Shown: piece after piece, positions 12,508 through 49,639 of the stretch
How positions within the stretch are numbered: position 1 is the stretch's first letter
Layout: each line of letters opens with the position of its first letter
Source of the DNA: Escherichia phage F13
Sequence record: OP745617
Strand: one strand, 5' to 3'
DNA length: 64,000 bases
Translations under genes and position numbers: made by a program
Notes under the pieces: model-generated
The model's input: only the letters and a program-made list of their open reading frames with translations
Told to the model about the DNA's origin: nothing
The model's database searches: none

Positions 12508-14817
12508 TTATTTTGCTGATTTCAGCGCGGCTATCTCTGCCTTGAGTTCACCTATCTGATCCATGAGTGCAAGAATAGCCTCGTGGTGCAATGCCGCTGC
12601 CACTCCGTAAGTGTCGACTGATTTGACATCCTTGACCACGGTCCCATCAGCCAGTTCCATATCACCTGAAACAGAAACGGCTTCTGGGAAATCAACCTCA
12701 ACATCTTGAGCCACGAATCCAAAACCTACTTTCGCGCCGTCAGTTTTCAATCGCCATGACACGCCATTAATCCTTTTCATCTTGGTCAATGGGTCTTGAA
12801 TCTTGACAATCTCATCCTTGATTCTGACGTCTGAAGAAGTACCCCAACCGCCAGCGCAAACAGCATTACCTGCTTGCAGGAATTGGAAATACTTGTTGGT
12901 GCCTACACCGCCAGCAGTAGTGGTCATTATGGTCACATCGCCATTACGCTCAGAATATACCCGACCATACGTTGCTGTGTTGGCACTGTTCTTAAAATCG
13001 ATGAACGATTGGTTGTTGGTGTTTCCAATGAACGTCGCTTGACCGCCGCGAGTTATCAACTGGCCTTTTGCATCAACGTTCCCAGAGCTGGTGATCAAGT
13101 TATTTGGCACAAGCAAGTTGCCGTTGTCGACAAAATCGAATGCCTGGCTGGCGGCAGTCGTCAAATTGGTAACGGTCAATCGCATGTAATAAGCGCCACC
13201 GATAACAGCGCGAATGCGCATGCGACCTTCAGCCTCAACAGCAGTCCCCACTCGATACTCCGACATGACGCTGCCGCCGTCAGCGGTCGTGCCTGGACCT
13301 GGCATTGCCGTATCGCCGTTTATAACAGACCATTGCGTATTCGCCGCTGTGAATCCACCGGATGCACGAATCACCCAAACGCCTGAAAAGTTGCGCGGCA
13401 ATACTTCATCTGTTGCAAGGTTGTTACGACCGTAAGCTGGGCTTGAGTTAGAAGCTCTTAGCGCAACGCTTCCCAAAGAGTTCGCACCAGAACTTAAAAG
13501 CGAAACACCTCTTACATATCGCGGAATGGTGAATCCTTCTCCATTGATGAATGCGCCGCCAGCACCTGCGACAACCGTTCCTGATGCTGGTTCACTTGCA
13601 GGGCCGGACCCGTGGAAGTTGATGTTGCCAGTGATGTTTGGCAGGAAGGATTCCATTATCATTCCGTCATTTGACGAGTTGCCGCCATCGCCACGGGCAA
13701 AAAGTGCACGAACACTTCCTGTCTGAACGCCGTTACGGTCTGGAACACGGAATGTTGTTGTTCCGTTGCCTAAAGAATACTTTCCGCGCTTCAGCGGGTC
13801 AGCCAACCAATCTGCATCAGCAATAGGCGTAAGCATTTGCGCATAAGCCCAAAGCTCAGGCCAGTCTGCACGGTTAAGCAATTGTCCGTCGGCAACAACT
13901 TCATACGACTGAATATAGGCGCGACTGTCGCGCAGGTGAAAGTCACCAACGCCATAGTTCATTACGCCGTTCATGCTTGGGCCAACGGTGCCAGTATTTA
14001 CTAAGTTCTCAACCCAACGCTTCGTCGCGGCATCATAATCATTGACGGGGTCGCCAGCCAGTGGTGTTGAGCCTTGTGGACGAATATTCAACCATGCTTG
14101 CGCATTGTCTGCTGATCCTGTGCCGCCCATGGAAGTTGGAACGATGCTCTGATCAGCAACAGGGCCAAATCCAAAGGCATCTTTCATTCCCTGAATAGTC
14201 GTTTGACCTGTGCCGCCGTTTGCAATTGGAATTGTGCTTTGTGAACTATAAATTTGCGCCCAAGGCGACCATGAAGATGTTTCAGCATTGTACCTTCTTT
14301 GGTACAAGTTATTTGAGTTGAATGTGGTGTATCTTTGAATGCAACTTTCCAAAGATATGGCAGTCTGCAGGACTTCCAATATCCCAGCTTCCAAGGCTAC
14401 TGGATAGTTGAGGGATGTCTGCGCAGCAGCATTTGAATATTGGTAATATTGCCCAAACCAAGTTCCAGTCAAAGAGTTCAGATTTATCCCCGACGGCAAA
14501 AGTCCAAAATTCCTGACAGTATTGGTCAAAGATGCGGCAGTTGTTCGAATGGAAAGCATGTCGCCTGCCGCCCATGCGCGCGCTGCAGTTCCTTCCTGTG
14601 CACGCTGCACAGTCAGGACGTTCCCAACCACGGCTGTTACAGTGATGATTTCAAATTGGAGGCCTGTTGCAGCGTCGACGATTGTCGCCACTACACGCTC
14701 GTTTGCACCCAAGGTCGGAAAGCCCGACCCTGAGCGGATTGTGATTGTGGTGTCTGAAGTCGTCGCTGGCTGAGCGAGCGCGACCTCAAAGTTGTTTTTG
14801 AATATTAGCCTTGGCAT
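12508..14817 (-). CDS. tail fiber or tailspike with C-terminal intramolecular chaperone (peptidase S74-like) domain
   Basis: 769 aa; C-terminus SSDVRIKDEI...GVSWRLK...GFVAQDV...LKAEIAALK is typical of the self-cleaving chaperone domain of fibers and endosialidases. Confidence 0.8.
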   Translation of the reverse strand: MPRLIFKNNFEVALAQPATTSDTTITIRSGSGFPTLGANERVVATIVDAATGLQFEIITVTAVVGNVLTVQRAQEGTAARAWAAGDMLSIRTTAASLTNTVRNFGLLPSGINLNSLTGTWFGQYYQYSNAAAQTSLNYPVALEAGILEVLQTAISLESCIQRYTTFNSNNLYQRRYNAETSSWSPWAQIYSSQSTIPIANGGTGQTTIQGMKDAFGFGPVADQSIVPTSMGGTGSADNAQAWLNIRPQGSTPLAGDPVNDYDAATKRWVENLVNTGTVGPSMNGVMNYGVGDFHLRDSRAYIQSYEVVADGQLLNRADWPELWAYAQMLTPIADADWLADPLKRGKYSLGNGTTTFRVPDRNGVQTGSVRALFARGDGGNSSNDGMIMESFLPNITGNINFHGSGPASEPASGTVVAGAGGAFINGEGFTIPRYVRGVSLLSSGANSLGSVALRASNSSPAYGRNNLATDEVLPRNFSGVWVIRASGGFTAANTQWSVINGDTAMPGPGTTADGGSVMSEYRVGTAVEAEGRMRIRAVIGGAYYMRLTVTNLTTAASQAFDFVDNGNLLVPNNLITSSGNVDAKGQLITRGGQATFIGNTNNQSFIDFKNSANTATYGRVYSERNGDVTIMTTTAGGVGTNKYFQFLQAGNAVCAGGWGTSSDVRIKDEIVKIQDPLTKMKRINGVSWRLKTDGAKVGFGFVAQDVEVDFPEAVSVSGDMELADGTVVKDVKSVDTYGVAAALHHEAILALMDQIGELKAEIAALKSAK

Positions 14818-14855: not shown

Positions 14856-15197
14856 TTAATTTCTTTTGAGAGGAATATGACGGTGGCTGCCATTATTTGG
14901 TTTAATAATGAGCATAAAAACGATTAGAAAGATGATGGCTGATATACTTAATTCAATCAGCGCGGCTTGAGATATAGATTGATCTTCGTGATACTGCTTT
15001 TGCATTTCTGCTTTCTTCTGAGCGCAAACTTCAGGTGATATGTAATCGCCTTTTGAGTTGCCATAATAAATTTCGCCGTTTTCAGAAATCAGTCTGCCGC
15101 AAATATCCGTTTCAGCCTTTGCACTTGACATCATAATAACGGTGCCGATAATAGCGGCGATAGTCCAGATTAACAGTTGTGATAAAGTGTTGTTCAT
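14856..15197 (-). CDS. membrane protein with N-terminal signal peptide and C-terminal TM anchor (113 aa)
   Basis: Start at internal ATG with AAAGAGG RBS; signal-like MNNTLSQLLIWTIAAIIGTVIMMSSAKA and C-terminal hydrophobic segment. Confidence 0.5.
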   Translation of the reverse strand: MNNTLSQLLIWTIAAIIGTVIMMSSAKAETDICGRLISENGEIYYGNSKGDYISPEVCAQKKAEMQKQYHEDQSISQAALIELSISAIIFLIVFMLIIKPNNGSHRHIPLKRN

Positions 15198-15645: not shown

Positions 15646-15838
15646 ATGTGTTGCCGCTTGTTTCTCTGTTTAGCAGGTATCTGCCGCGCATCCCATGAAG
15701 GCTGAACTCAACCGTCGATGGATTAGATTTTGAAAGCCATATAGGCTGCCCGTCGAATGGACCGCCTACGCATGTATATTTCGCTTTTGGCTCACTCCTT
15801 TTGGGCCGTTTTGCCCGCTCTTTGATTGATAGTCTCAT
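15617..15838 (-). CDS. hypothetical basic protein (73 aa)
   Basis: ORF. Confidence 0.35.
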   Translation of the reverse strand: MRLSIKERAKRPKRSEPKAKYTCVGGPFDGQPIWLSKSNPSTVEFSLHGMRGRYLLNRETSGNTFVEWKENGK

Positions 15839-16053
15839 CAGTCTTCACCTTGAGATTCCAGACAAGTAAGGACAAGCCAAGTCATCGGAAGAATCAAAAC
15901 CAGAGAAATGAGGGACCAGATAGACCAGCACAGGATGACAGACTTGAATGTGTGAACGTCGCCAAACGCAGCAGTAAAACAGAATCCCATTACAAATGCA
16001 ATAGCGGTGGAATGGTTGTCTATGGCTTTGATGGCACGGTCGATGAGTTTCAT
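15838..16053 (-). CDS. small two-TM membrane protein (71 aa), holin-like
   Basis: Two hydrophobic segments and charged C-terminus; assignment from topology only. Confidence 0.4.
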   Translation of the reverse strand: MKLIDRAIKAIDNHSTAIAFVMGFCFTAAFGDVHTFKSVILCWSIWSLISLVLILPMTWLVLTCLESQGED

Positions 16054-42351: not shown

Positions 42352-44136
42352 ATGCCAACACTTATTAACAGACCTTTCGCGCAAAGCGGTGATGTATCCG
42401 TGGTGCCGGATGCAAGTCCAAGCGGTTATGTGAACTTCCAGCGCGGCTACACCCCTGACTATGCACTTGCGCTGGAAGCCGGAAACGTCGCCGCGAAAGC
42501 AGTTGAACGTGAGTCGATGAACTGGTTGCTGAATCTGATCACCGACAACCTTATGTTCATCCAGGACCACGGCGCTCAACAGTATTTCTCGTCTGACTTG
42601 AAGCCAGATGGATACCCGAAAAATGCCATCGTTGTCAGCAACTCTGGCACCCCTTCAGCGCCTGAATGGCGCATTTTCCAGAGTGTGGTAGACGGCAACA
42701 CCAGCGCAGTCCCAGCTAACGGCGAAACGGAATCTTGGCAGGAATTGACGCTGCCTAGCGAAGCGAGAAAATATATTCCTATGCCTGCTGGCGGCGATGC
42801 GCAAAACCCGTATTTTGTTCGCGGACTGATTTCAAACTTTGTGGACTTTGATAATATCACGACTTCCACAACTATTGTCATTCAATCTGATGCCGTTGCC
42901 GCTCTCTGCTCTAACATCCCGAACGCGGTTGGTGCGACGAAGGTTGCAGGTCGTCTCCAGGTTTGCGCTTGGCAGGTTGATGCGCAGACTTTCGCCCTGC
43001 AACAATACACGTCAATGAACGGATATGTTTTCACCCGCTCTTATACTTCTGGTGCTTGGAGTGCTTGGATTCAAAATGCAACTGTTCAAGACGTGCAAAT
43101 CGGCACGCCGAATCTTGCATCAGGTAAAGGCGCACAAGATATAATCCTTACCGTTCCGGCAGGTTATGCATGGCCGCCGTCAGCAGGTAGTCGCCTGACA
43201 ATTGTCAATGATGTAACGACTACCGGACCTGTTACCGTGACCATTGGTGCAAACAAAGTTGCAGTCCTTGGATTCGACGGCGGCGAGCTGCCAGCAGGGT
43301 CCATCGTCGGTCTTCTTCCTTTTACTATTATTTATGACGGCACCGTTTGGCGTCTTCTTCAAGCATTCGGCGCGGCGCAAATCGGTGTCGATGCTAGTGA
43401 GCCGCAACAGTTTGTTACAAAGCGCCAACTCGATGCTTTGGCTGCGAAATTGATAACTATGGGTGATGTATTCGAAGTCGGTGAGACTCGATTCTTGACT
43501 AATGGCACTAACCCAAATACTAAACTGGGCGCTTATGGACAGGTTTGGACCAGATTGCCTGACAACATGGTCATCAGGACATCTGGCACAGCAAGAAACG
43601 GCCTTGCCACTGGCGGCGCGGACTCTGTTACTCTTACCGCCGCCATGCTTCCTCTGCACAATCACAGCGTGAACATAACTACGCGACAGAGCGGTCCATG
43701 GTCCAATACCACTGGAGGCGCAGGCAACCATAACCACACAGGCGATACCAGTCAAAACGGCGCTCACGTGCACGGAATGGATGCTGCTGGTAATCATCAT
43801 CACGACAGTGGCTGGGGTGAGGCTTATGCAGACCAGGCTAGATACGGGGTGTATGATGGCACGCACAATAACCTTGGAAGTGCAAGGTCTGATTATGACA
43901 ACTACAAATACAACACCTCGACTAACGGTAGCCACGTCCACAATATTCAATCTTCTGGGTCACACACCCATGGGTTGAATATAAATTTCGCTGGCAATCA
44001 CAGCCATAGCTATACCCTTCCCGCTCACACTCACGATGTGGTCGGTAACACTGGCAATGCAGGGCAGTCCGTCCCAACGGCTGTTTCAACTCTGCCGCGA
44101 TATGTCGTCTTGAACGGCTGGTACAGAAGCGCATAA
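42352..44136 (+). CDS. tail fiber protein with His-rich HxH C-terminal tip
   Basis: 594 aa from ATG 42352 (GAGGAA RBS); C-terminal HNHS..NHNHTGD..HVHG..NHHHD..HVHN..HTHG..NHSHS..HTHD repeats. Confidence 0.6.
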   Translation: MPTLINRPFAQSGDVSVVPDASPSGYVNFQRGYTPDYALALEAGNVAAKAVERESMNWLLNLITDNLMFIQDHGAQQYFSSDLKPDGYPKNAIVVSNSGTPSAPEWRIFQSVVDGNTSAVPANGETESWQELTLPSEARKYIPMPAGGDAQNPYFVRGLISNFVDFDNITTSTTIVIQSDAVAALCSNIPNAVGATKVAGRLQVCAWQVDAQTFALQQYTSMNGYVFTRSYTSGAWSAWIQNATVQDVQIGTPNLASGKGAQDIILTVPAGYAWPPSAGSRLTIVNDVTTTGPVTVTIGANKVAVLGFDGGELPAGSIVGLLPFTIIYDGTVWRLLQAFGAAQIGVDASEPQQFVTKRQLDALAAKLITMGDVFEVGETRFLTNGTNPNTKLGAYGQVWTRLPDNMVIRTSGTARNGLATGGADSVTLTAAMLPLHNHSVNITTRQSGPWSNTTGGAGNHNHTGDTSQNGAHVHGMDAAGNHHHDSGWGEAYADQARYGVYDGTHNNLGSARSDYDNYKYNTSTNGSHVHNIQSSGSHTHGLNINFAGNHSHSYTLPAHTHDVVGNTGNAGQSVPTAVSTLPRYVVLNGWYRSA

Positions 44137-44144
44137 GGTGATTT

Positions 44145-44789
44145 ATGATTAATGCAAACGTAATATCTAAAGGGACCGGATGCAGCATGGATGTTGCTGA
44201 AAAATGGGTCGACCCCTTCAAGCAGGCTTGTGAGCACTACGGAATCAAAAGCAAGAATGCCATCGCGGCGTTGCTTGCAAACGTAGGAGTAGAAACAGGC
44301 AGTATGAAGACTTTTGTGGAGAACTTGAATTACTCCGCTCAAGGTCTTGCGAATACATGGCCTAGCCGTTACAGCGCCAGCGGTCGTTTCGGTGGCGCAC
44401 CAAACTCCTTGGCATTGTCTATTGCCCGTAAACCAATGGAAATCGCCAATAATACATATGCAAACCGAATGGGCAATGGTTCGGTAGCATCTGGCGACGG
44501 TTGGAAGTACCGTGGCCGTGGTGCCATTCAGCTGACTGGAAAGGCTAACTATGCAGAGTATTCAAAGCAATCAGGGTATGATGCATTGAATAACCCTGAC
44601 ATTTTGACTGAGCCGAAACACATCGCTGACAGCGCGGCATGGTTCTTCAAGAACAGCGGTTGCATCCCACTTGCTGATGCTGGCGCATTTGATTCGACTG
44701 TGAAGCGGATTAACGGGGCCGCGCCGAATACGGCTAACCATGGAGATTTGCGACGGAAGCGTTACAAGGATGCACTAGCAGTTATGTAA
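44145..44789 (+). CDS. endolysin, glycoside hydrolase family 19-like
   Basis: 214 aa; motifs YANRMGNG...GWKYRGRGAIQLTGKANY typical of GH19 lysozymes. Confidence 0.7.
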   Translation: MINANVISKGTGCSMDVAEKWVDPFKQACEHYGIKSKNAIAALLANVGVETGSMKTFVENLNYSAQGLANTWPSRYSASGRFGGAPNSLALSIARKPMEIANNTYANRMGNGSVASGDGWKYRGRGAIQLTGKANYAEYSKQSGYDALNNPDILTEPKHIADSAAWFFKNSGCIPLADAGAFDSTVKRINGAAPNTANHGDLRRKRYKDALAVM

Positions 44790-44792
44790 GAA

Positions 44793-44820
44793 AAAGGCCC
44801 ATATGGGCCTTTGTTTATTT
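44793..44820. terminator. bidirectional Rho-independent terminator
   Basis: Palindrome AAAGGCCCATATGGGCCTTT flanked by T-tracts on both strands, between convergent genes. Confidence 0.75.
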
Positions 44821-45045
44821 TACGGCTTCAACCTGGACGGGCGGCGCGGAACTTGTATCAATGTCTGGCAAGTCGAAGTAATACCCCGCCATGCCAATCA
44901 CGCCAACAATCGCGGCCCGTGCCACCTTGTTGCTGATTGACTCCCCAATAAGCTTTACCAACAGGGACAAGATTTGAGACGTCAAAGCCTTTTTCAGCCT
45001 TTTGTTTTCTTCCAAATCTTTCTGCATAACTACCACCCATGTCAA
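44815..45045 (-). CDS. small membrane protein (76 aa)
   Basis: One hydrophobic segment (AAIVGVIGMAGYYF). Confidence 0.35.
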   Translation of the reverse strand: MTWVVVMQKDLEENKRLKKALTSQILSLLVKLIGESISNKVARAAIVGVIGMAGYYFDLPDIDTSSAPPVQVEAVK

Positions 45046-45584
45046 CGCACTTCCTGTGTCTTAACATTACCTGAAGCATCTCTTAAGGGCAGTGGATAGT
45101 AGGCCATTTGGTAGTCTGATACGCCTTCAACATGATAAAACACGATTACGTCTTTGCTGTTGATGAGCATGTTAACGACATCTGATTTATCTTCTGGAGT
45201 GAGTATGAGTGCGCCGCCTGTCCTGCTGTCTACTGCAACAGGGTATGTCTTATCGACAAGGCCGCTGTCCAATGTATTATACCTGACAACGATTTCAGGG
45301 GCATCAACTTTTGCAATTGACATTCCGAACACAAACGACACGACTTGGCGACCGCGATCATTCATTACGCACATCTTTTCCTTATCAAACCTTTCCTTTA
45401 TCACATCATATTTGTTCCAACAAAATTCGAACGATTGGCCGTTGTTAAAATATCTCGTTAATACTTTTGCATTGCTGTTTGGCGGCGTAAACATACTTTC
45501 AGCCGCTGCACTTTTGGTGAAGAACAAAACTGTCAGCATAGCCATGATGATGATCAAAACAATCTTTAAGTTTTTCGATTTCAT
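45042..45584 (-). CDS. secreted or periplasmic protein (180 aa)
   Basis: N-terminal signal-like MKSKNLKIVLIIIMAMLTVLFFTKSAAA. Confidence 0.45.
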   Translation of the reverse strand: MKSKNLKIVLIIIMAMLTVLFFTKSAAAESMFTPPNSNAKVLTRYFNNGQSFEFCWNKYDVIKERFDKEKMCVMNDRGRQVVSFVFGMSIAKVDAPEIVVRYNTLDSGLVDKTYPVAVDSRTGGALILTPEDKSDVVNMLINSKDVIVFYHVEGVSDYQMAYYPLPLRDASGNVKTQEVR

Positions 45585-45654
45585 TATAATTCACCTTTTG
45601 ATTACGAATATTAATAGTATAGGCCGAAGGTTTTGAAAGTAAATAAGGCGAAAG

Positions 45655-45686
45655 GTAAATAAAAGAAAAGCCGGAGATTTCCGGCT
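45655..45686 (-). terminator. Rho-independent terminator (minus strand)
   Basis: AGCCGGA-gatt-TCCGGCT hairpin followed on the minus strand by TTTTCTTTTATT; downstream of the ligase gene. Confidence 0.6.
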
Positions 45687-45760
45687 TTATGTATACACTG
45701 TATATTAAATTCTATAAAACGACGAGATAGATTATCCGCACCAATTATTTATCTAGTGTC

Positions 45761-46738
45761 TTAGAAATACTCCATATCGGTAATATCACGGAAGCATTTA
45801 TACAAAGCAGAGCGCGGCACGTCAACGATGCCAAAGTTAAAGAATTTATACGTAAGGTATTTATCGCGATAGTTTTCGCGATTCTCCCAAAGCATTTTAC
45901 GCTCTGCCATAGGCATTGAACCAGCGGAGACGCGGAAAGGAATCATTTCACCTTTCTCATCCACATATTTTGGATTGACGACTACGAATGAGCCAAGGTA
46001 TCCTTTCGCAACTAAACCTTCAGCCTCTTTTGAACGCTTGGTGCGACCCAATTCGTCAATGAATGCTTCGTTGTTGTTCTCCATCATCTCAACGAAGTCT
46101 ATGATCAATCCTTCTTCATCGGTCCACGGCTTGTCCTTCCACACATCACGTGACTTCGGCGTCGCGCGGCCATGCTTGTATTTGCCCGTCCAAGACTTGC
46201 CATACAAGCCTTCATATCCAAGCTGGTCCGCTTCGATTTGCATCGCCGCGTACTGTTCCATATTTTCGATGTTTCGATATTCGAGAGCGCGAAGGAATGG
46301 GCGTCGACCATGGTTGATGAGATGTTGATTAACTTCAGCAACTCTAGCTCGATAGTTCGCATAACGCTTTTCAAAAGGCAAATCAGGGTCGCTGAAGTCA
46401 TCAAACACCCACCATGTAAAGTTAGTGATTGCATCAGTATTCATGCACGCAGTATAGGCCTGTTGCATGACGTTCTTGTCATTTGGATTGCCGTCGATTA
46501 GCTCTCCATCAAGTCCGTGAATTAGTTCACCCAAAAAGAGGAATTCTTTTTTGATTTGAACGTTTCTCAGCGCCATGCCGGACGTGCCCATTGGCAAGTT
46601 GTCATACGCCATTGCGCGTATTCCATCGACCTTGAATGACAATCCGCAAGGCAGCGGCACGTCTTCGCCGCGCTCGATTATTTGCTTACGCTGGCAACCC
46701 TTCATTGGTTTTAATGCTTTGATTTCTCCTGCCATCAC
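45761..46738 (-). CDS. ATP-dependent DNA ligase-like protein
   Basis: 325 aa; adenylation motif KVDGIR and EG..K-type motifs (EGLYGK, AEGLVAKG). Confidence 0.55.
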   Translation of the reverse strand: MMAGEIKALKPMKGCQRKQIIERGEDVPLPCGLSFKVDGIRAMAYDNLPMGTSGMALRNVQIKKEFLFLGELIHGLDGELIDGNPNDKNVMQQAYTACMNTDAITNFTWWVFDDFSDPDLPFEKRYANYRARVAEVNQHLINHGRRPFLRALEYRNIENMEQYAAMQIEADQLGYEGLYGKSWTGKYKHGRATPKSRDVWKDKPWTDEEGLIIDFVEMMENNNEAFIDELGRTKRSKEAEGLVAKGYLGSFVVVNPKYVDEKGEMIPFRVSAGSMPMAERKMLWENRENYRDKYLTYKFFNFGIVDVPRSALYKCFRDITDMEYF

Positions 46739-47328
46739 TCAAACTCCTTATTCATCACTTGTTCCAGCGCATAGGCGTAAGCCTGATCAGTAGATTTGAT
46801 GAACGTTCCGTTGTACATGACACCTTTGCGGTCCTTGATGTCTTCGTAGGCCGCTTGCGCACAGTCGGATAAGCGAAGGCCATAATCATGAGCTACGCCG
46901 GAAAGGTAATCGACTGCGGCCATGATGGTGACGTCAATATCCATGGTCTGATTCTTAGCAATAGCATCACCAAGCCGTCCAAGGGTCTTTGCCAGGCGAA
47001 GGATGAATGAATGAGGGTGAGCGCCTTTATCAGCACAACCGCCGCCATTAATGTTTTCGATTTCAGTACCGTTTTGCGCCGCCAGGATGGTCAACACAAC
47101 AAGACAATCGCCAATGTCGTCCTTGATTGCAGCTTGCAAGTCACAGATGGCCTGCTCTGTATATCCAATTTCAGGGTCGAAGAACACAAGGTCATGGAGT
47201 TGATCAACGTGGTCGGTTAACTCCCCAAACTCGCTGATAAGCTTCGGGTATTGGTCCTTAAGGTCGCAACCTTGGATGATGTTACGGTCAGAAGCCCACT
47301 GGCGAATGTTTGCATAAATCTGTTTCAT
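46735..47328 (-). CDS. MazG-like nucleotide pyrophosphohydrolase candidate
   Basis: 197 aa; acidic helix motifs (LISEFGELTDHVDQL, DDIGDCLVVLTILA). Confidence 0.4.
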   Translation of the reverse strand: MKQIYANIRQWASDRNIIQGCDLKDQYPKLISEFGELTDHVDQLHDLVFFDPEIGYTEQAICDLQAAIKDDIGDCLVVLTILAAQNGTEIENINGGGCADKGAHPHSFILRLAKTLGRLGDAIAKNQTMDIDVTIMAAVDYLSGVAHDYGLRLSDCAQAAYEDIKDRKGVMYNGTFIKSTDQAYAYALEQVMNKEFE

Positions 47329-47844
47329 TTATTTTTCCTTTGATGCATTGAATTGATCGATTTTTATTTTAGCCTGATTATAAGTATCAATCAAGCTATT
47401 AACTTTCTCTTTTAATCGATTTGTTTCTGCGGCGAACTGAACAAGAAATCTGACATCCTCTTCTGATAGTCCACAGTTTCCTTCTGGGATAGAGAGGCGT
47501 CCAGTGGTCGCAGAGTCGGGCACACTCCTGAGTAACTCACGGGAGCAGCTGAGTTGCTCGCGCAACTTGACATTCCCAGACTTGTAACGAGCAATAGTGT
47601 CATCAGCAACCAGTTGCGCTTCCTGGCGACCCTTCTCATATGCCGATGCCGATTCAACCTGTAAAGTTGCAATTTGCTCTTCGAGTGCATTTATCTTGTC
47701 CTTACGCTCATTAAGCGATGTCAGATATTGATTATCCTTGGCCAGTGATGCGTTGGTTTGCTGCAGGTCTTCAACGTATGATCCAGCGGCAAACGCGCCA
47801 ACAAGGGCCAGAATCTTCAGGAGCGGTACAATTCTTTCTATCAT
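47329..47844 (-). CDS. i-spanin (Rz-like) candidate: N-terminal TM plus coiled coil
   Basis: 171 aa; TM IVPLLKILALVGAFAAGSYV then heptad-rich sequence; embedded out-of-frame ORF with lipoprotein-like signal. Confidence 0.4.
   Translation of the reverse strand: MIERIVPLLKILALVGAFAAGSYVEDLQQTNASLAKDNQYLTSLNERKDKINALEEQIATLQVESASAYEKGRQEAQLVADDTIARYKSGNVKLREQLSCSRELLRSVPDSATTGRLSIPEGNCGLSEEDVRFLVQFAAETNRLKEKVNSLIDTYNQAKIKIDQFNASKEK
47412..47603 (-). CDS. embedded o-spanin (Rz1-like) candidate
   Basis: Out-of-frame ORF inside 47329..47844; MTLLLVTSLGMSSCAS resembles a lipoprotein signal but the lipobox is non-canonical. Confidence 0.25.
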   Translation of the reverse strand: MTLLLVTSLGMSSCASNSAAPVSYSGVCPTLRPLDASLSQKETVDYQKRMSDFLFSSPQKQID

Positions 47845-47901
47845 GATGCACCAGATAAATAAAAGGCCGCCAATCGGCAGCCTTGTTGATTTGATTGTCG
47901 A

Positions 47902-48762
47902 TTAAAACTCTTCTGCGTCGGTCGGAGTTTCATTGACAGGGCCAGCGGCACCGCTTGCTTCTTCCTGCTTGCTGCGGTCAATGTTAACGTTGCCGCCAAC
48001 TACGTCGTTGTGGAATGCCTTGGCGACTTCGTACAGACCTTTGTCCTGCACCAGACCTTCCAGCTCAAACTTCAGAACTGACCATGTATTGCCGTCTTTG
48101 GACTGGGATGCAGTGCCCATGCGAACGATGTTCATAAAGGTCGGCGGCGTTTTCAGACCCTGCGGAGTCTGAACTTTCTTCTGCTGCAGAGCTGTCATCA
48201 GCATGCGAGACGGCTTGATCATGGAAGAAGTCAGAGACAGCATTGCGCTACCAAATTCACCAGTTTCTTCGTTCAACAGAATTACGAAGTGGTTACGTGT
48301 ATCTGCGTAGTAAGGCGATTTCTTCTCGTGCACCTTGCCGTTTTCGTCCGGCACAAACACTTTACCGTTGATCTCAACAGCGCGCCCTGCCGCGACTTCT
48401 GCATCAACGTGCTCTTTGGTGAATTCACCTTTAAAGCCTTTATCGTCGGACTCGCGACCGCCCCAAAGGATGAAGGTGCGTTTGAATGCACAAGGGATGA
48501 TCTGCACGCCTTTCTTGCCGTCATACAACTCACCAGTGACGGTGTTGTAAAGCATGCCAGCTTTTGCGCCAGGAACGTGTTTCGGATCATCTTCGTCGAC
48601 CATAGGTGACATCTTCTGCAGGACGACGATAAAAGGAATGGCATACGCATCGGCATCGGCACCTTCAAAACCAGCGCCAAAATCGGTCATGTCGACAAAA
48701 TCGGCCATAGCGGACATCTGGGTGTTTTTCACTGCAACTTCGGTGGTTTCTTTCTTAGACAT
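47902..48762 (-). CDS. single-stranded DNA-binding protein candidate (T7 gp2.5-like)
   Basis: 286 aa; acidic C-terminal tail ending in Phe (TDAEEF); position in the replication module. Confidence 0.35.
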   Translation of the reverse strand: MSKKETTEVAVKNTQMSAMADFVDMTDFGAGFEGADADAYAIPFIVVLQKMSPMVDEDDPKHVPGAKAGMLYNTVTGELYDGKKGVQIIPCAFKRTFILWGGRESDDKGFKGEFTKEHVDAEVAAGRAVEINGKVFVPDENGKVHEKKSPYYADTRNHFVILLNEETGEFGSAMLSLTSSMIKPSRMLMTALQQKKVQTPQGLKTPPTFMNIVRMGTASQSKDGNTWSVLKFELEGLVQDKGLYEVAKAFHNDVVGGNVNIDRSKQEEASGAAGPVNETPTDAEEF

Positions 48763-48821
48763 TTGATATTTTCCTATAGTATCAAGTTTCGTGGCAACCT
48801 GATTTCAAGATAAAGGTTAAA

Positions 48822-49379
48822 TTACTTTTTGCTTTTAGGCAAGGTTATTTTAGCTTCTTTGTATTCAAAAACGCTAATATCTTCACTAACTGGATTGCCT
48901 GCTTCCAGCTGTTCTTTTACAAATGACTTCAGTGTAGCAGAATGAACGCCTTGTTTCAATGTGGCTTCAACGCCATCTTCACGCAGCGCGGCAACAATCT
49001 CTTGCGCCTGTTCGATTTCTTCGCGACCGAACTCAGCCGTGACGCTGGACTTGATCAAGCCGCCGTAACCGTTGTTGACAAGCCAATCGAAAACTTTTAA
49101 TTCGTTTTCTTTCTTGATTGAAGCATTCACCTTGGACTCGACCTTGATTTTGGTCTTGTCCTCAAGCTTGATTTCAGACACACCAAGCTCATCCATTACG
49201 CCAGGAAGCAAAACAGTTTTGATTTCACTGATGCGCTGCTTTTGCATATCAGCTTCATCTTCAAGCTCTGTCAAAGCTTCTTGACGTTCTGCAAGTTCAG
49301 ATACTAAGCGCGCAAGGCGCTCTTGAATGCTCTCAGGAGCGACCTGCGGCAAATCATCTTCCCAATTAATATTGCTCAT
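48822..49379 (-). CDS. hypothetical protein (185 aa), coiled-coil N-terminus
   Basis: ORF in the replication or recombination neighbourhood. Confidence 0.4.
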   Translation of the reverse strand: MSNINWEDDLPQVAPESIQERLARLVSELAERQEALTELEDEADMQKQRISEIKTVLLPGVMDELGVSEIKLEDKTKIKVESKVNASIKKENELKVFDWLVNNGYGGLIKSSVTAEFGREEIEQAQEIVAALREDGVEATLKQGVHSATLKSFVKEQLEAGNPVSEDISVFEYKEAKITLPKSKK

Positions 49380-49639
49380 ATTTTACCTTCTTGCATTAGC
49401 CCTTCAACACGGGTCATTTGATAACGTTCAGGTTTCCAAGCCGCCAAAGCCTTCTCAGCGCCTTTTAAGGTTTTATATGCCTTGATGCCAGGCACAATAA
49501 CGGTATTCACCCCAGCGCCGTTGCCATAATCAAACTCTTTAACAACGCGGAACATCCCGTCAATTTCTTTGACCAAAAGACGTTTGAAAGCGATTGCGCC
49601 AGTAGCTTCATTTTTGTAACGTTCAAGGATGCGTACCAT
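49376..49639 (-). CDS. hypothetical protein (87 aa)
   Basis: ORF with overlapping stop/start. Confidence 0.4.
   Translation of the reverse strand: MVRILERYKNEATGAIAFKRLLVKEIDGMFRVVKEFDYGNGAGVNTVIVPGIKAYKTLKGAEKALAAWKPERYQMTRVEGLMQEGKI

Follow-up and report, generated by a model that had tools for sequence, protein, structure and literature searches.

A probable embedded two-component spanin of the lambda Rz/Rz1 type among the replication genes of a Wifcevirus coliphage

Spanin genes are typically, but not obligatorily, linked to the genes for the holin and the endolysin. In phage lambda, the o-spanin Rz1 is encoded in the +1 frame inside the i-spanin gene Rz; Rz has an N-terminal transmembrane domain (TMD) and a two-helix periplasmic region, and Rz1 is a short lipoprotein of 40 mature residues. 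Burkholderia phage Mica carries its spanin genes (gp68/gp69) directly after a class II holin and a SAR endolysin, and the homologue in Yersinia phage PY54 (ORF63) comes after a holin and a glycoside hydrolase. The T4 spanins PseT.3 and PseT.2 are unlinked from the holin (t) and the endolysin (e), yet act in lysis (PMC6139136). Closest to the system presented here is the pair of phage ECML-117, which Kongari et al. 2018 placed among the embedded two-component spanins as a singleton family and labeled “best possible candidates,” with the lipobox GISS-C, a 75-aa o-spanin, and, in their supplement, a coiled coil for the i-spanin (PMC6139136).

Here, we analyzed the corresponding locus in a 64,000-nucleotide stretch of Escherichia phage F13 DNA (OP745617), referred to below as the window. 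Its interval 44000-49500 shares 100% identity with Escherichia phage vB_EcoM_SP13 (genus Wifcevirus; OP352608) and matches ~30 other wifceviruses at 93-97% identity, including ECML-117, Mansfield, WFC/WFH, FEC19, vB_Eco4M-7, and Bas98-101. Both an i-spanin and an o-spanin are annotated at homologous coordinates in the GenBank records of Mansfield and Bas98-101, and RefSeq names an i-spanin in WFC, WFH, FEC19, and ECML-117. The SP13 record lists the outer gene as a “hypothetical protein” and contains no o-spanin annotation. Our literature searches on this spanin family found no experimental work, and lysis genes go unmentioned in the announcement paper for Mansfield. The parts of the pair in the window are as follows.

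47329..47844, minus strand: i-spanin gene, 171 aa, ORF from ATG to TAA (PHROG 1327 match, homology to the Mica i-spanin, AlphaFold2 helices)
47776..47832, minus strand: codons of the predicted i-spanin N-terminal transmembrane helix, aa 5-23 (Kyte-Doolittle hydropathy; conserved in relatives)
47412..47639, minus strand: o-spanin gene, short form, 75 aa (MRRVARKRNW...), +1 frame, with a 25-aa signal peptide and a 50-aa mature lipoprotein predicted
47640..47690, minus strand: 17 codons that may extend the o-spanin at its N-terminus, giving the 92-aa form of the Mansfield and Bas100 annotation
47562..47564, minus strand: lipobox Cys codon (LGMSS-C), predicted lipidation site and first mature residue (PS51257-type pattern)

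The i-spanin and o-spanin of ECML-117 are 98.8% and 94.7% identical to the window proteins, respectively, and the two phages share the +1 embedded architecture and the location between a gp34-like gene and MazG. The lipobox is GMSS-C in the window and GISS-C in ECML-117. The window i-spanin has 171 aa and a TAA abutting the MazG ATG, whereas that of ECML-117 has 172 aa and an ATGA overlap. A one-base difference from Mansfield and ECML-117 within 47326-47334 places the i-spanin stop one codon earlier in the window (171 vs. 172 aa).

The only hydrophobic segment of the outer protein is aa 5-23 (IVPLLKILALVGAFAAGSY), where hydropathy peaks at a Kyte-Doolittle 19-mer mean of 1.8 and a 15-residue mean of 2.33. 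The topology of this segment is predicted, and it is helical in the AlphaFold2 model. That model, which used five homologues, has a helix at residues 5-106 and another at 128-170, joined by a loop (107-127), with pLDDT values of 84-93 across aa 30-100. Heptad periodicity peaks at aa ~38-65 and 136-170; by this crude measure, 25 of 2000 shuffled sequences reach the same score. As modeled, the i-spanin would thus comprise a membrane helix at its N-terminus plus a pair of long helices joined by a ~20-residue linker. The PHROG 1327 “Rz-like spanin” profile matches aa 6-160 with E=1.9e-26, covering profile positions 9-156 of 158. Among its cysteines, C100 is invariant in eight sequences, including lambda Rz, and C124 is conserved among the relatives and PY54.

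The embedded ORF (47412-47690, minus strand) encodes 92 aa in the +1 frame, lies wholly inside 47329-47844, and translates as MHSKSKLQLYRLNRHRHMRRVARKRNWLLMTLLLVTSLGMSS followed by CASNSAAPVSYSGVCPTLRPLDASLSQKETVDYQKRMSDFLFSSPQKQID. Its lipobox, LLVTSLGMSS-C, fits the PROSITE PS51257-type pattern with Ala at +2, and lipidation is predicted from this pattern test. The lipobox Cys is invariant across the relatives, Mica, and lambda Rz1 in a multiple alignment. The periplasmic cysteine C40 (mature Cys15) is also invariant. The mature protein has only 4 prolines in 50 residues, which we count against the spanin reading, and its match to a family model is weak (phrog_4306, E=0.0039). We also considered a unimolecular spanin of the T1 gp11 type, in which one polypeptide combines a lipobox signal with a C-terminal TMD, and rejected it: the TMD of the i-spanin is N-terminal and that protein lacks a lipobox, and the o-spanin has no TMD past its signal peptide.

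We then compared both proteins with recognized spanins. The i-spanin is 33% identical to the Mica i-spanin (E=5e-14), and the o-spanin is 43% identical to the embedded o-spanin of Mica (E=2e-7). Furthermore, the mature o-spanin is 47-50% identical to frames within Rz-like genes of PY54, P840, P744, LIET2, Nafs113, and Acinetobacter phage Alexa; the surroundings of the spanin in Pantoea phage LIET2 are unrelated and proved uninformative. Mica and PY54 have homologues of both proteins in the embedded arrangement, but these belong to canonical holin-endolysin-spanin cassettes and are 28-50% identical to the window proteins. Neither window protein matched PF03245 (Rz) or PF06085 (Rz1), even at E<=10, and Pfam and NCBIfam scans of both returned no spanin match. 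A direct comparison of the i-spanin with lambda Rz was not significant (BLASTP E=4.9; hhalign probability 0.6%). Because these direct comparisons are not significant, the link to the Rz family is only transitive, via Mica, whose i-spanin is a clear PF03245 member (6e-17, 62.4 bits). The relative P0004 scores below the threshold of the same family (E=0.0021; 18.7 bits vs. a 25.4-bit cut-off).

The likeness to lambda Rz/Rz1 lies in the +1 embedding, the i-spanin with an N-terminal TMD and two periplasmic helices, and the short lipoprotein o-spanin. Multiple alignments place i-spanin Cys100 opposite lambda Rz Cys99 and the periplasmic o-spanin cysteine opposite Rz1 Cys29. The window o-spanin is longer than Rz1, at 50 vs. 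40 mature residues, and, unlike in lambda, the pair does not adjoin a holin and an endolysin. Taken together, we consider it probable, at roughly 0.88, that this Wifcevirus coliphage encodes a two-component spanin of embedded, lambda Rz/Rz1-like architecture. The original prediction, made from the letters alone, had described a 171-aa protein with an N-terminal TM helix and a long coiled coil, with which the ORF, the hydropathy, the AlphaFold2 helices, and the heptad score all agree. It had also pointed to an out-of-frame embedded ORF with a lipoprotein-like signal, borne out by the lipobox pattern match and Ala +2 in 47412-47690, and had recognized the architecture of Rz/Rz1 spanins, in keeping with the PHROG 1327 match, the Mica homology, and the conservation of the embedded lipoprotein.

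An open frame within a gene of this length can arise by chance, and we estimated how often using 20000 synonymous recodings of the 171-aa protein. An out-of-frame ORF of at least 75 codons appeared in 19% of these, and one of at least 50 codons with a lipobox in 4.2%, a value too weak to decide the matter, as this null retains the co-evolved protein sequence. We therefore turned to comparisons between genomes. A protein search of 5.8 billion sequences yielded four diverged i-spanin homologues from assembled sequencing runs (52-65% identity; contigs L006-L009). All four retain the +1-frame lipoprotein ORF, with lipoboxes AISG-C, AISS-C, and ATSS-C, and the mature core of the o-spanin is highly conserved among them: GVCPTLxPL(D/E)ASLSQKETVDYQ..MS.FLF. 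Over the mature o-spanin, the i-spanin frame has an invariant third position in 27 of 50 columns; outside the overlap, the figure is 8 of 72 (Fisher p=4e-7). When only columns with one and the same i-spanin residue across the five sequences are counted, the values are 15/24 and 5/22 (p=0.009). No other part of the overlap is as constrained as the mature region. Additionally, tblastn found the 75-aa frame at full length and unbroken in 28 of 28 Wifcevirus-type records, so that none of 32 genomes (28 close and 4 diverged) has a stop or frameshift in it. At the level of sequence, this third-position invariance is a dual-coding signature, with both frames under purifying selection. We judge the embedded frame to be real because this comparative evidence is decisive; the chance level obtained from the single sequence is modest.

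The start of the o-spanin is ambiguous. ATG codons at 47690 and 47639, which precede the lipobox Cys by 42 and 25 codons, are both kept in the five diverged sequences. The upstream ATG has an AAGGA motif 8 nt before it (47699-47703) that is conserved in all five, and the downstream ATG has no clear Shine-Dalgarno sequence. Over the 17-codon extension, i-frame third positions are invariant in 2 of 17 codons, which equals background, so third-position change is not suppressed there; amino-acid-level constraint on the o-spanin begins at ATG 47639. For ECML-117, Kongari et al. 2018 chose the 75-aa start (PMC6139136), and the annotation of Mansfield and Bas100 uses the 92-aa form. Constraint thus points to 47639 and the conserved AAGGA favors 47690, and the predicted mature lipoprotein would be identical either way. 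Within the i-spanin frame, it is the invariant residues R47-K48-D49 that encode the AAGGA motif 8 nt upstream of the +1-frame ATG (47688-47703). The next conserved i-spanin position varies among N, Y, H, and D, always through an xAT codon followed by G, by which the ATG is preserved. This pattern at 47688-47703 suggests selection on an internal translation-initiation signal, and not on the i-spanin residues themselves.

Next, we examined the surroundings of the pair, which include the following features.

46735..47328, minus strand: MazG-like pyrophosphatase gene (phrog_1992, E=1e-62), translationally coupled to the i-spanin gene
45761..46738, minus strand: ATP-dependent DNA ligase gene (phrog_114, E=6.5e-42), last of the spanin-MazG-ligase unit
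47853..47884, minus strand: terminator-like hairpin (9-bp stem, 6 GC) with a T tract, just upstream of the i-spanin RBS GGTG at 47849-47852
45667..45688, minus strand: terminator-like hairpin closing the spanin-MazG-ligase unit; recurs in relatives

The i-spanin TAA directly abuts the MazG ATG in the window, with an ATGA overlap in the relatives, and the MazG and ligase genes overlap by 4 nt. Both hairpins are found at the same positions in the relatives and are annotated as terminators in Mansfield. The hairpin preceding the spanin genes is also present, with different stem sequences, at the same position in L006-L009, in Pbunavirus Ab27, and in Serratia phage MTx. We found no sigma-70-like promoter between this hairpin and the spanin ATG; therefore, transcription of the spanin-MazG-ligase unit most likely depends on read-through out of the replication cluster, as judged from sequence organization. 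In L006-L008, the gene order runs from a DnaE-like polymerase through a VRR-NUC-like gene, a SNF2 helicase, a DUF7307 gene, and a Pam3-gp34-like gene to the spanin pair, then continues with the MazG-like gene, the ligase, a 180-aa ORF, a 70-aa ORF, and the convergent endolysin. Contig L009 is short and contains only the part from the DUF7307 gene to the ligase, in unchanged order.

The remaining lysis functions were searched for across the window, giving one endolysin gene and four membrane-protein ORFs that could act as, or together with, a holin.

44145..44789, plus strand: GH19 endolysin gene (Pfam Glyco_hydro_19, 31.2 bits vs. a 25.5-bit cut-off; phrog_181, E=1.9e-69)
44815-45027, minus strand: 70-aa ORF, phrog_5165, convergent to the endolysin; candidate holin or lysis accessory
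45042-45584, minus strand: 180-aa ORF with an N-terminal signal/anchor (MKSKNLKIVLIIIMAMLTVLFFTKSAAA), no family match; candidate holin
15838-16053, minus strand: 71-aa orphan membrane ORF with two TMDs; possible holin/antiholin
14856-15197, minus strand: 113-aa ORF with a signal peptide, a periplasmic segment, a C-terminal TMD, and a basic tail; possible holin/antiholin

The endolysin gene is the last of the tail-fibre operon, and its product has no hydrophobic N-terminus and no flagged transmembrane segment; a holin is therefore expected. The Bas100 annotation contains no holin anywhere, and in the announcement paper of the related phage MTx, neither a holin nor a spanin was identified. Only the 70-aa ORF among the four candidates matched any family (phrog_5165, unknown function). 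Its product combines an amphipathic helix with a single weakly hydrophobic segment (ARAAIVGVIGMAGYYF). Convergent orientation of the ORF relative to the endolysin slot is conserved in Wifcevirus, Pbunavirus, MTx, and metagenomic relatives, and extends to genomes in which a phrog_90-type endolysin takes the place of GH19. By position alone, it may be likened to an 8.5-kDa protein that was reported to enhance endolysin killing in the paper on Pantoea phage PA1. The 180-aa protein is conserved at 41-63% identity in relatives. Its ORF is preceded by a conserved sigma-70-like promoter (45616-45643, minus strand; TTTACT, 16-17 nt spacer, TATACT/TATAAT) located just past the ligase terminator. Together, the 180-aa and 70-aa ORFs form a separate small transcription unit that ends at a bidirectional terminator beside the endolysin. 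The 71-aa and 113-aa ORFs belong to a leftward operon, divergent from the terminase gene, in which a second tail-fibre gene (12508-14817) is also found; they are identical in Bas100 and have no PHROG or NCBIfam family match. The identity of the Wifcevirus holin is of practical concern for engineering these O157-targeting phages. Separately, the endolysin slot of two diverged contigs holds an unrelated ~150-aa phrog_90-type endolysin (L006:9065-9520 and L007:9078-9530), where the window and L008 have GH19; this is a non-orthologous endolysin replacement.

The spanin pair is 2540 bp from the endolysin gene and on the opposite strand; MazG, the ligase, and two ORFs of unknown function separate the two. 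The distance of about 2.5 kb from the GH19 endolysin given in the original prediction was accurate, as was its placement of the pair in a replication operon, since the gene order puts it between the Pam3-gp34-like gene and MazG/ligase. Its proposal of co-transcription with the MazG-like and ligase genes gains support at the level of sequence organization, from the TAA-ATG coupling and the 4-nt overlap. Its view that the lysis genes are scattered also holds, as the pair is unlinked to the endolysin, for which T4 offers a precedent: PseT.3/PseT.2 likewise stand apart from holin and endolysin. Its remark that no holin adjoins the endolysin stands less firmly, given the conserved 70-aa phrog_5165 ORF, with its weak hydrophobic segment, convergent to that gene. 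The likeness to T4 is one of arrangement; the T4 spanin genes are separated, whereas those of the window are embedded.

We also asked what occupies the spanin slot in sister genera. In Pbunavirus Ab27 (ORF69, L010:5792-6397) and Serratia phage MTx of the genus Myosmarvirus (gp064, L011:5940-6545), it holds a 201-aa phrog_1544 protein whose N-terminal hydrophobic segment is Gly-rich and which also has a coiled coil and two C-terminal TMDs. This protein has a weak, sub-threshold match to GTA_holin_3TM (E=0.01), and no homologue of it was found in the window. A sequence for the PB1 u-spanin was not found in the supplement of Kongari et al. (PMC6139136). One tentative and rather doubtful idea is that the interval between the gp34-like gene and MazG is a conserved lysis-gene slot of the PB1-like myophage replication cluster, fed by read-through past the hairpin, with spanins in Wifcevirus and its relatives and with phrog_1544, maybe the missing holin, in Pbunavirus and Myosmarvirus.

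Other explanations of the locus were weighed against the spanin reading. The 171-aa protein could be an unrelated membrane coiled-coil protein of the replication module, with the embedded ORF an untranslated chance frame; the original prediction had itself named a different membrane coiled-coil protein as its alternative. The position among replication genes, the coupling to MazG, the lack of a Pfam or NCBIfam match, and the 4.2% of recodings with a lipobox ORF of at least 50 codons are what one would expect under such an explanation. However, it is contradicted by the dual-coding signature (p=4e-7), by a frame and lipobox kept in 4 diverged and 28 close genomes, and by the homology of both frames to spanin pairs in canonical cassettes. 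On these grounds we reject it as highly improbable. It is just as hard to believe that only the i-spanin functions and that the o-spanin frame is a decaying remnant. The absence of a clear Shine-Dalgarno sequence at ATG 47639 and the weakness of the phrog_4306 match would suit a remnant, but decay is at odds with a mature region that is the most constrained part of the overlap, with a frame free of stops and frameshifts in every one of the 32 genomes, and with the conserved AAGGA motif ahead of the upstream ATG.

A further possibility is that a spanin-derived pair was recruited for an early- or mid-infection job, for example envelope remodelling or superinfection exclusion, with outer-membrane disruption at lysis accomplished otherwise. 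The placement in the replication cluster, away from late genes and stable across relatives, would accord with this, as would the different membrane protein, phrog_1544, in the slot of the sister genera. We nevertheless regard recruitment as unlikely: all spanin hallmarks are kept, including the cysteines aligned with those of lambda; the T4 spanins are lytic although unlinked from e and t (PMC6139136); and we saw no other spanin candidate in the window.

As a two-component spanin, the pair may be expected to work by analogy with lambda Rz/Rz1. The spanin genes would be read through the conserved hairpin from the replication-gene cluster, coupled to MazG and the ligase. Anchored in the inner membrane, the i-spanin would extend its helices into the periplasm, and the o-spanin, after signal peptidase II cleavage and lipidation, would reach the outer membrane and occupy its inner leaflet. 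Each could form disulfide-linked homodimers, the i-spanin through Cys100 and/or Cys124 and the o-spanin through mature Cys15. Binding between the i-spanin and o-spanin C-termini would then give a complex that crosses the periplasm, threading the peptidoglycan mesh. Once the GH19 endolysin clears the peptidoglycan, the complexes would collapse, the inner and outer membranes would fuse, and progeny would be released. Such a complex would be inert while the wall is intact; therefore, expression outside a late lysis cassette is possible.

The embedded i-/o-spanin pair is genuine and conserved, but it is already catalogued and ordinary. The scientific value of the result is accordingly small: existing annotation is confirmed, and the SP13 record is seen to lack the o-spanin and to list the i-spanin as “hypothetical.” The spanin-MazG-ligase unit is now documented as a stable arrangement between terminator-like hairpins. 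Furthermore, comparative and statistical support for dual coding now exists for a family previously known as a singleton “best candidate” in the survey of Kongari et al.
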